From the NCBI RefSeq assembly GCF_003334335.1, contig NZ_QOWQ01000243.1: DNA of 215 nt; one strand, given 5' to 3'. Source of the DNA: Escherichia coli. Its GTDB lineage: Bacteria; Pseudomonadota; Gammaproteobacteria; Enterobacterales; Enterobacteriaceae. The notes under the pieces were generated by a model, which worked only from the letters and a program-made list of their open reading frames with translations, ran no database searches and was not told where the DNA came from. Shown piece by piece: positions 1 through 215 of the stretch (position 1 is the stretch's first letter; every line of letters starts with the position of its first letter). The position numbers were made by a program, and so were the translations under genes.

Positions 1-215
1 ACGGAATTTATCCGTGAAGGTGTGGGCGTTCATGCGTTTAACGGCGAAATCTTTGTGCAGCCGGTCTGGGATACGGAAACCACGCAGTTATTCCGTACGC
101 GTTTTAAAGCCGTGAGTCCGAAACGGGTGGACACGCCTGGACACGGTATGGGGAACCGTTTTCTGCGGGCCGGTGTGGAGGTCGATCGATATGGCCGTGC
201 CGTCGCGTACCATAT
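1..215 (+). CDS. Phage portal protein, lambda family (gpB homologue); internal fragment, partial at both 5' and 3' ends, codon phase 0 at nt 1
   Basis: Seen in sequence: frame +1 is open across the full window (71 codons plus 2 nt), while frames +2 and +3 contain stops (e.g. TGA at nt 14-16 in frame +3 and TGA at nt 113-115 in frame +2). Translation: TEFIREGVGVHAFNGEIFVQPVWDTETTQLFRTRFKAVSPKRVDTPGHGMGNRFLRAGVEVDRYGRAVAYHI. Established knowledge, recalled from memory and not database-verified: lambda gpB contains a segment of the form IREGVAMHAFNGELFVQATWDTSSSRLFRTQFRMVSPKR...RAGV, which aligns colinearly with this translation at roughly 55-60% identity. The matches are strongest in IREGV, HAFNGE, FVQ, WDT, LFRT, VSPKR and RAGV. 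Codon usage (cgt, ggc, gtg, ccg, gaa, aaa) is typical of enterobacterial genes. Confidence 0.85.

Follow-up and report, generated by a model that had tools for sequence, protein, structure and literature searches.

A Shine-Dalgarno look-alike and an out-of-frame ATG inside the phage 21 portal gene as a probable by-product of portal coding sequence

The Shine-Dalgarno (SD)-like GGAGG and the out-of-frame ATG inside the portal gene of Escherichia phage 21 are almost certainly coincidental, a by-product of how the portal protein is encoded, the frame +2 open reading frame (ORF) behind them being an ordinary off-frame ORF. Selection is seen on the portal frame only, and the frame +2 ORF carries no sign of it; we infer that this ORF is not meaningfully translated. 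The original prediction had rated a coincidental motif far above an embedded or overprinted ORF, a ranking supported here by the lack of conservation, the lack of purifying selection and an ORF length at chance level.

The stretch of DNA analysed (215 bases, the window) matches Escherichia phage 21 (OL657228, 3217-3431; M81255, 3383-3597) at 100% identity, and likewise many E. coli prophages. Its positions 1-215 (plus strand) form a segment of the phage 21 portal gene, i.e. gene 4, the lambda B homologue, read in frame +1 from codon 132 to codon 202 plus two bases. In the curated phage 21 record the annotated portal CDS spans OL657228 2824-4416, and as (3217-2824)/3 = 131, frame +1 of the window is the annotated portal frame. 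It is free of stops across the whole window and reads ...RAGVEVDRYGRAVAYH, in line with the earlier reading that the portal frame continues straight through the motif region. The whole portal protein matches phrog_21 "portal protein" (E=2e-190) and shares 60% protein identity with lambda gpB, and the gene order W-B-C around the portal is the same in OL657228 and lambda. Both the phrog_21 match and the position between W-like head-completion and C-like protease/scaffold genes place the host gene in the lambda-family portals (lambda gpB; phrog_21).

The p21-type portal gene is carried by 1877 of 5426 complete E. coli genomes (about 35%), with a median of 2 and a maximum of 5 copies per carrying genome, almost all at 95% nucleotide identity or above. 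Portal identities in the phage collection are bimodal, at ≥95% and about 66%, with none in between. In the 1993-era record M81255.1 (portal at 2990-4582), the product of gene 4 is labelled "head-tail preconnector gp5", the same as for gene 5; across the portal, M81255 and OL657228 are 99.9% identical. According to the 2022 announcement, the new phage 21 sequence fixes single-base errors of earlier fragments (PMC9119081).

The motif is present as originally described. GGAGG occupies window positions 177-181 (plus strand) and is contributed by the portal codons GTG-GAG-GTC (Val-Glu-Val), the 9-nt spacer TCGATCGAT follows at 182-190, and the ATG at 191-193 (plus strand, frame +2) arises at the junction of the portal codons TAT-GGC (Tyr-Gly). 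Likewise, frame +2 is open from this ATG to the window end and reads M A V P S R T I; these first eight codons of the ORF (191-215, plus strand) are judged non-coding. Where the lambda portal has Gln-Ile-Asn-Asp-Ser, the p21-type portal has Glu-Val-Asp-Arg-Tyr, and it is the p21-type residues alone that create the motif. GGAGG with a 9-nt spacer represents good initiation geometry, at the better end of such look-alikes, and the SD lies in the loop of the predicted fold. On the strength of this geometry and of the predicted loop, some ribosome loading at GGAGG/ATG may occur in vivo. The RNA around the motif (80-nt region) folded no better than shuffles (z = +1.39), and no structural element was detected in it. 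The out-of-frame ATG is flanked by a 7-bp inverted repeat, GATATGG...CCATATC (window 188-215 plus the next base; OL657228 3404-3432), which is paired in the predicted MFE fold. As the 80-nt region is no more stable than its shuffles, this repeat is probably due to chance.

A stop within a few codons of the window end, which the original prediction had named as decisive against an embedded ORF, does not occur. In the phage 21 genome, frame +2 extends for 60 codons from the out-of-frame ATG (OL657228 3407), and the peptide starts MAVPSRTISVR... (MAVPSRTISVRMIFR...). The ORF runs to OL657228 3589, 158 bases past the window end, with its stop codon at 3587-3589; counted from an upstream GTG at window 173-175 it comprises 66 codons. 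With no early stop, the question is to be settled by chance expectation and conservation. The peptide is found in no database family, gene call or curated annotation. The 60-aa peptide gave no match in PHROG at E ≤ 0.1, and a look-up of the exact 60-aa and 66-aa sequences among about 15 billion predicted proteins found neither, i.e. they were never called as a gene. The OL657228 annotation was built with GLIMMER, MetaGeneAnnotator and manual work and lists 73 genes (PMC9119081). Embedded and dual-start genes are marked in this hand-curated annotation (the o-spanin, the Nu3-like scaffold and the dual-start holin/antiholin), and no gene is entered at the frame +2 ORF inside the portal. Among the papers listed by the literature searches, none was found to describe a product encoded within the phage 21 portal gene.

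Viewed in isolation, the motif appears rare. The pattern GGAGG-N5-10-ATG is expected 0.01 times in a single 215-base window and was found in 3 of 200 shuffles, although this single-window expectation takes no account of how many windows are scanned. Across the 42.9-kb phage 21 genome, 13 matches were observed versus 8.0 ± 2.7 expected from dinucleotide shuffles, roughly what chance would give. Seven of these are annotated gene starts, and the match at 22819 re-uses the GGAGG of the gene start at 22822 with the next ATG. The remaining five, the portal-internal one included, are orphans, a number below the chance level. Counting in the sense strand of annotated genes only, phage 21 coding sequence contains 37 GGAGG motifs; an ATG follows 5-10 nt downstream in five cases, three of them being starts of the next gene and two orphans.

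The length of the ORF was evaluated in a similar manner. Inside phage 21 genes, 9.4% of the frame +2 ATGs (n=382) open ORFs of at least 60 codons. When synonymous codons of the portal gene were permuted, keeping both protein and codon usage (n=3000 shuffles), 99.6% of the shuffled genes had a frame +2 ORF with an ATG start and 60 codons or more (P = 0.996). Because so many frame +2 ATGs and nearly all synonymous shuffles reach it, the 60-codon length carries no weight; an overlapping gene may be expected to be longer than host protein and codon usage predict, and the frame +2 ORF is not. Requiring in the same 3000 shuffles that the ORF of ≥60 codons be headed by GGAGG and ATG gave P = 0.08 for the portal gene alone, and P = 0.525 was obtained for an ATG with a 4-mer SD core. 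One long ORF headed by GGAGG and ATG among about 57 phage genes is thus unsurprising. The portal gene also holds a second, longer frame +2 ORF of 115 aa (OL657228 3860-4207, plus strand), for which there was no PHROG match. It too is expected by chance, as 77% of the synonymous shuffles had a frame +2 ORF of 115 codons or longer.

Variation was followed in a clade sample of 62 distinct portal sequences with 96-100% nucleotide identity and in a second sample, drawn independently by scanning viral contigs with a degenerate pattern for relatives in which the local portal peptide is retained. All of the roughly 120 distinct p21-type sequences examined have GGAGG and ATG unchanged, and most variants keep the full 60 codons. 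Still, this invariance is uninformative, since the clade is shallow (≥96% nucleotide identity) and the surrounding 44 nt likewise show no variation at 9 of about 14 synonymous sites. Only 2-3 synonymous sites are critical for GGAGG/ATG, and by our own arithmetic the probability of finding them invariant by chance is roughly 0.2-0.4.

The two overlapping frames differ markedly in how they vary. Among the 62 sequences, 18 of the 60 residues of the frame +2 peptide are variable, compared to 4 of 61 for the portal over the same stretch. The polymorphic codons of the frame +2 ORF comprise 1 silent versus 18 amino-acid-changing ones, while the portal frame across the same overlap has 14 silent versus 4 changing. 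Portal third positions are ORF second positions, so each portal-silent change there alters the ORF peptide. With this ratio and with nonsense variants in circulation, the frame +2 ORF does not display the purifying selection to be expected of an overlapping gene. Specifically, 7 of 61 distinct variants have premature stops that leave 56 or 42 codons, and in the second sample it is reduced to 56, 42 or 25 codons in 9 of 62. Examination of synonymous-site constraint in the portal frame, as had been proposed together with the original prediction, revealed no reduction over the overlap: 16 of 61 portal third positions are variable inside it (pi 0.067) versus 129 of 470 outside (pi 0.063), and in a sliding-window comparison of portal third-position variability the overlap falls at the 53rd percentile. 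Hence the lowered host-frame synonymous variation associated with overlapping genes is not seen in the clade sequences.

Conservation was also traced among more distant portals. The portals of lambda, phi80, N15, HK225, vB_EcoM-705R4 and Aeromonas phiARM81ld (54-61% protein identity) have neither the GGAGG nor the ATG, and no other start was found at the homologous place in these six phages. A one-genome-per-species scan with the conserved FEPxEDGQTRG motif retrieved 24 portal homologues. The GGAGG/ATG motif and ORF are found in only three of them, all p21-type (98-99% identity), and one of the three has the 56-codon form. GGAGG is absent in all relatives at or below 65% protein identity, the species-level ones (46-65%) covering about 20 other species. 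The only relative of intermediate divergence from the species-level scan, the Trabulsiella guamensis portal (78%), has GGAGA, and its ATG, formed from CAT-GGT, leads to a stop after 28 codons. In the Hafnia portal (65%) an ATG likewise arises from CAT-GGT, with a stop after 4 codons. These two are the only relatives outside the p21-type motif in which an ATG is formed via CAT-G. In the relatives Ser, Asn, Ala, Gly, Val or His takes the place of the portal Tyr, so that otherwise there is no ATG; in the Motiliproteus portal the Tyr is retained but spelled TAC, with the same consequence. An absence of the ATG and the frame +2 ORF from related portal genes had been named beforehand as evidence against an embedded gene, and this is the observed pattern, both being restricted to the clade of ≥96% nucleotide identity. 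Start, ribosome-binding site and open frame are accordingly not conserved across homologues of the host gene, as they would be for an established overlapping gene.

In lambda, phi80, N15 and other relatives, frame +2 is mostly free of stops across the homologous 40-56 codons, and this includes distant portals with no start at that position. Its end usually falls at one of two shared sites (within ...YSVME and ...LKM). This openness is attributed to conserved portal residues and rare xTA codons rather than to a selected ORF.

By this explanation, the features have a simple origin. GGAGG is Val-Glu-Val in the p21-type spelling, the ATG is a Tyr-Gly junction, and the 60-codon open frame reflects how open the +1-shifted frame ordinarily is in coding sequence of the E. 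coli type, where a stop needs an xTA-A/G or xTG-A codon junction. Codons of the xTA type are rare, and given this requirement the shifted frame is likely to stay open. Initiation at the out-of-frame ATG, if there is any, would amount to translational noise yielding an unselected peptide. The case resembles spurious off-frame ORFs with chance SD-like motifs in every respect considered: a stop-poor +1-shifted sense frame, a motif made of ordinary codons, no conservation, no constraint, and a frequency and length that fit the null models. No notable difference was identified.

Three other readings have been weighed against this by-product explanation. The GGAGG/ATG could head a young, clade-restricted overprinted gene, with a functional 60-aa protein made from frame +2 of the p21-type portal gene. 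This is very unlikely, even though SD and spacing are good and the ATG with its 56-60 codon ORF is found in most clade members. Portal synonymous diversity is not lowered over the overlap, the polymorphic codons of the ORF are nearly all amino-acid-changing (1 silent versus 18), about 11-15% of distinct variants carry premature stops, motif and length fall within chance expectation, and there is neither a homologue nor a family. Moreover, the peptide is rich in R, S, V, P and G with Cys and Trp, which we judge to be a typical off-frame read-out. That a 60-aa protein started at GGAGG/ATG is instead very young, or is a translated but still-unselected proto-gene of the p21-type portal, we consider similarly improbable, and the same holds for low-level translation of the ORF. 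A genuine embedded gene of the same phage offers a comparison: the o-spanin (Rz1-like, OL657228 40795-40977, within the i-spanin gene at 40575-41036) is likewise out-of-frame, 60 aa long, on the same strand as the larger gene that contains it, and preceded by an SD. Across lambdoid phages, o-spanins of the Rz1 type are conserved, with a recognisable lipoprotein as their product. In contrast to the portal-internal ORF, which lacks conservation, recognisable features and a family, the o-spanin has its own entry in the curated annotation, supported by literature references.

Both remaining readings concern translation of the portal itself. As a perfect anti-SD complement that is invariant in the clade, GGAGG could act in cis, either as an anti-SD pause site or as a stimulator of frameshifting of the dnaX/prfB type, a reading even less probable than an overprinted gene. 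Pausing by internal SD-like motifs is disputed in the ribosome-profiling literature, and with 37 GGAGG motifs in phage 21 coding sequence the present one is not special. More distant portals all lack the motif, with Gln-Ile, Lys-Ile, Ser-Val and others in place of Glu-Val, and the local RNA is no more structured than shuffles. An SD-stimulated frameshift site of the dnaX/prfB type was rejected specifically: the sequence after GGAGG is TCGATCGATATGGCC, which contains neither an X-XXY-YYZ heptamer nor an in-frame stop, and over the 3-15 nt downstream (GTC GAT CGA TAT GGC) no slippery heptamer or in-frame stop is found. Alternatively, GGAGG could serve an internal in-frame start giving an N-terminally truncated portal, by analogy with the C/Nu3 arrangement of the next gene. 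In-frame internal starts do occur in this operon, where the scaffold CDS (5309-5911) lies inside 4406-5911. Yet GGAGG is followed by the portal codons GAT, CGA, TAT, GGC and CGT, and no in-frame ATG, GTG or TTG is found 5-15 nt past it; internal in-frame initiation is already refuted by the sequence itself, and the probability left to a truncated portal is practically negligible.

The by-product explanation thus amounts to a clean negative that in itself matters little. It shows that even a strong SD look-alike, an ATG and 60 open codons in the +1-shifted frame can occur together in an E. coli phage gene within chance expectation, so that flagging such an arrangement needs evidence of constraint or expression. 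Were an overprinted gene to exist in this very widespread prophage portal, it would be a modest addition to the known phage overlapping genes, and a young 60-aa protein would represent the de novo birth of a gene through overprinting of a prophage structural gene.

The opposite strand of the portal gene contains an ORF of 168 aa that enters the window at positions 88-215 (minus strand; OL657228 3304-3810), lies in the codon-aligned antisense frame and is judged non-coding. Stops in this antisense frame require TTA, CTA or TCA in the sense frame; the whole portal gene has 8 such codons, and none lies between portal codons 160 and 337. Among the 62 variants, the polymorphic codons of the antisense ORF are 3 silent versus 59 amino-acid-changing, and 4 of the 62 carry premature stops. 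Based on this variation pattern and on the codon-aligned frame, the ORF is a shadow ORF despite its match to phrog_19427 "unknown function" (E=5e-37), a family that probably consists of genes mis-called on the strand opposite portal genes. Finally, JAIJJM010000092.1, a 7.7-kb contig labelled "MAG: Collinsella sp." (an actinobacterium), carries a portal with 98% identity to the phage 21 one. Most likely, this is an E. coli prophage contig mis-binned into the Collinsella MAG.
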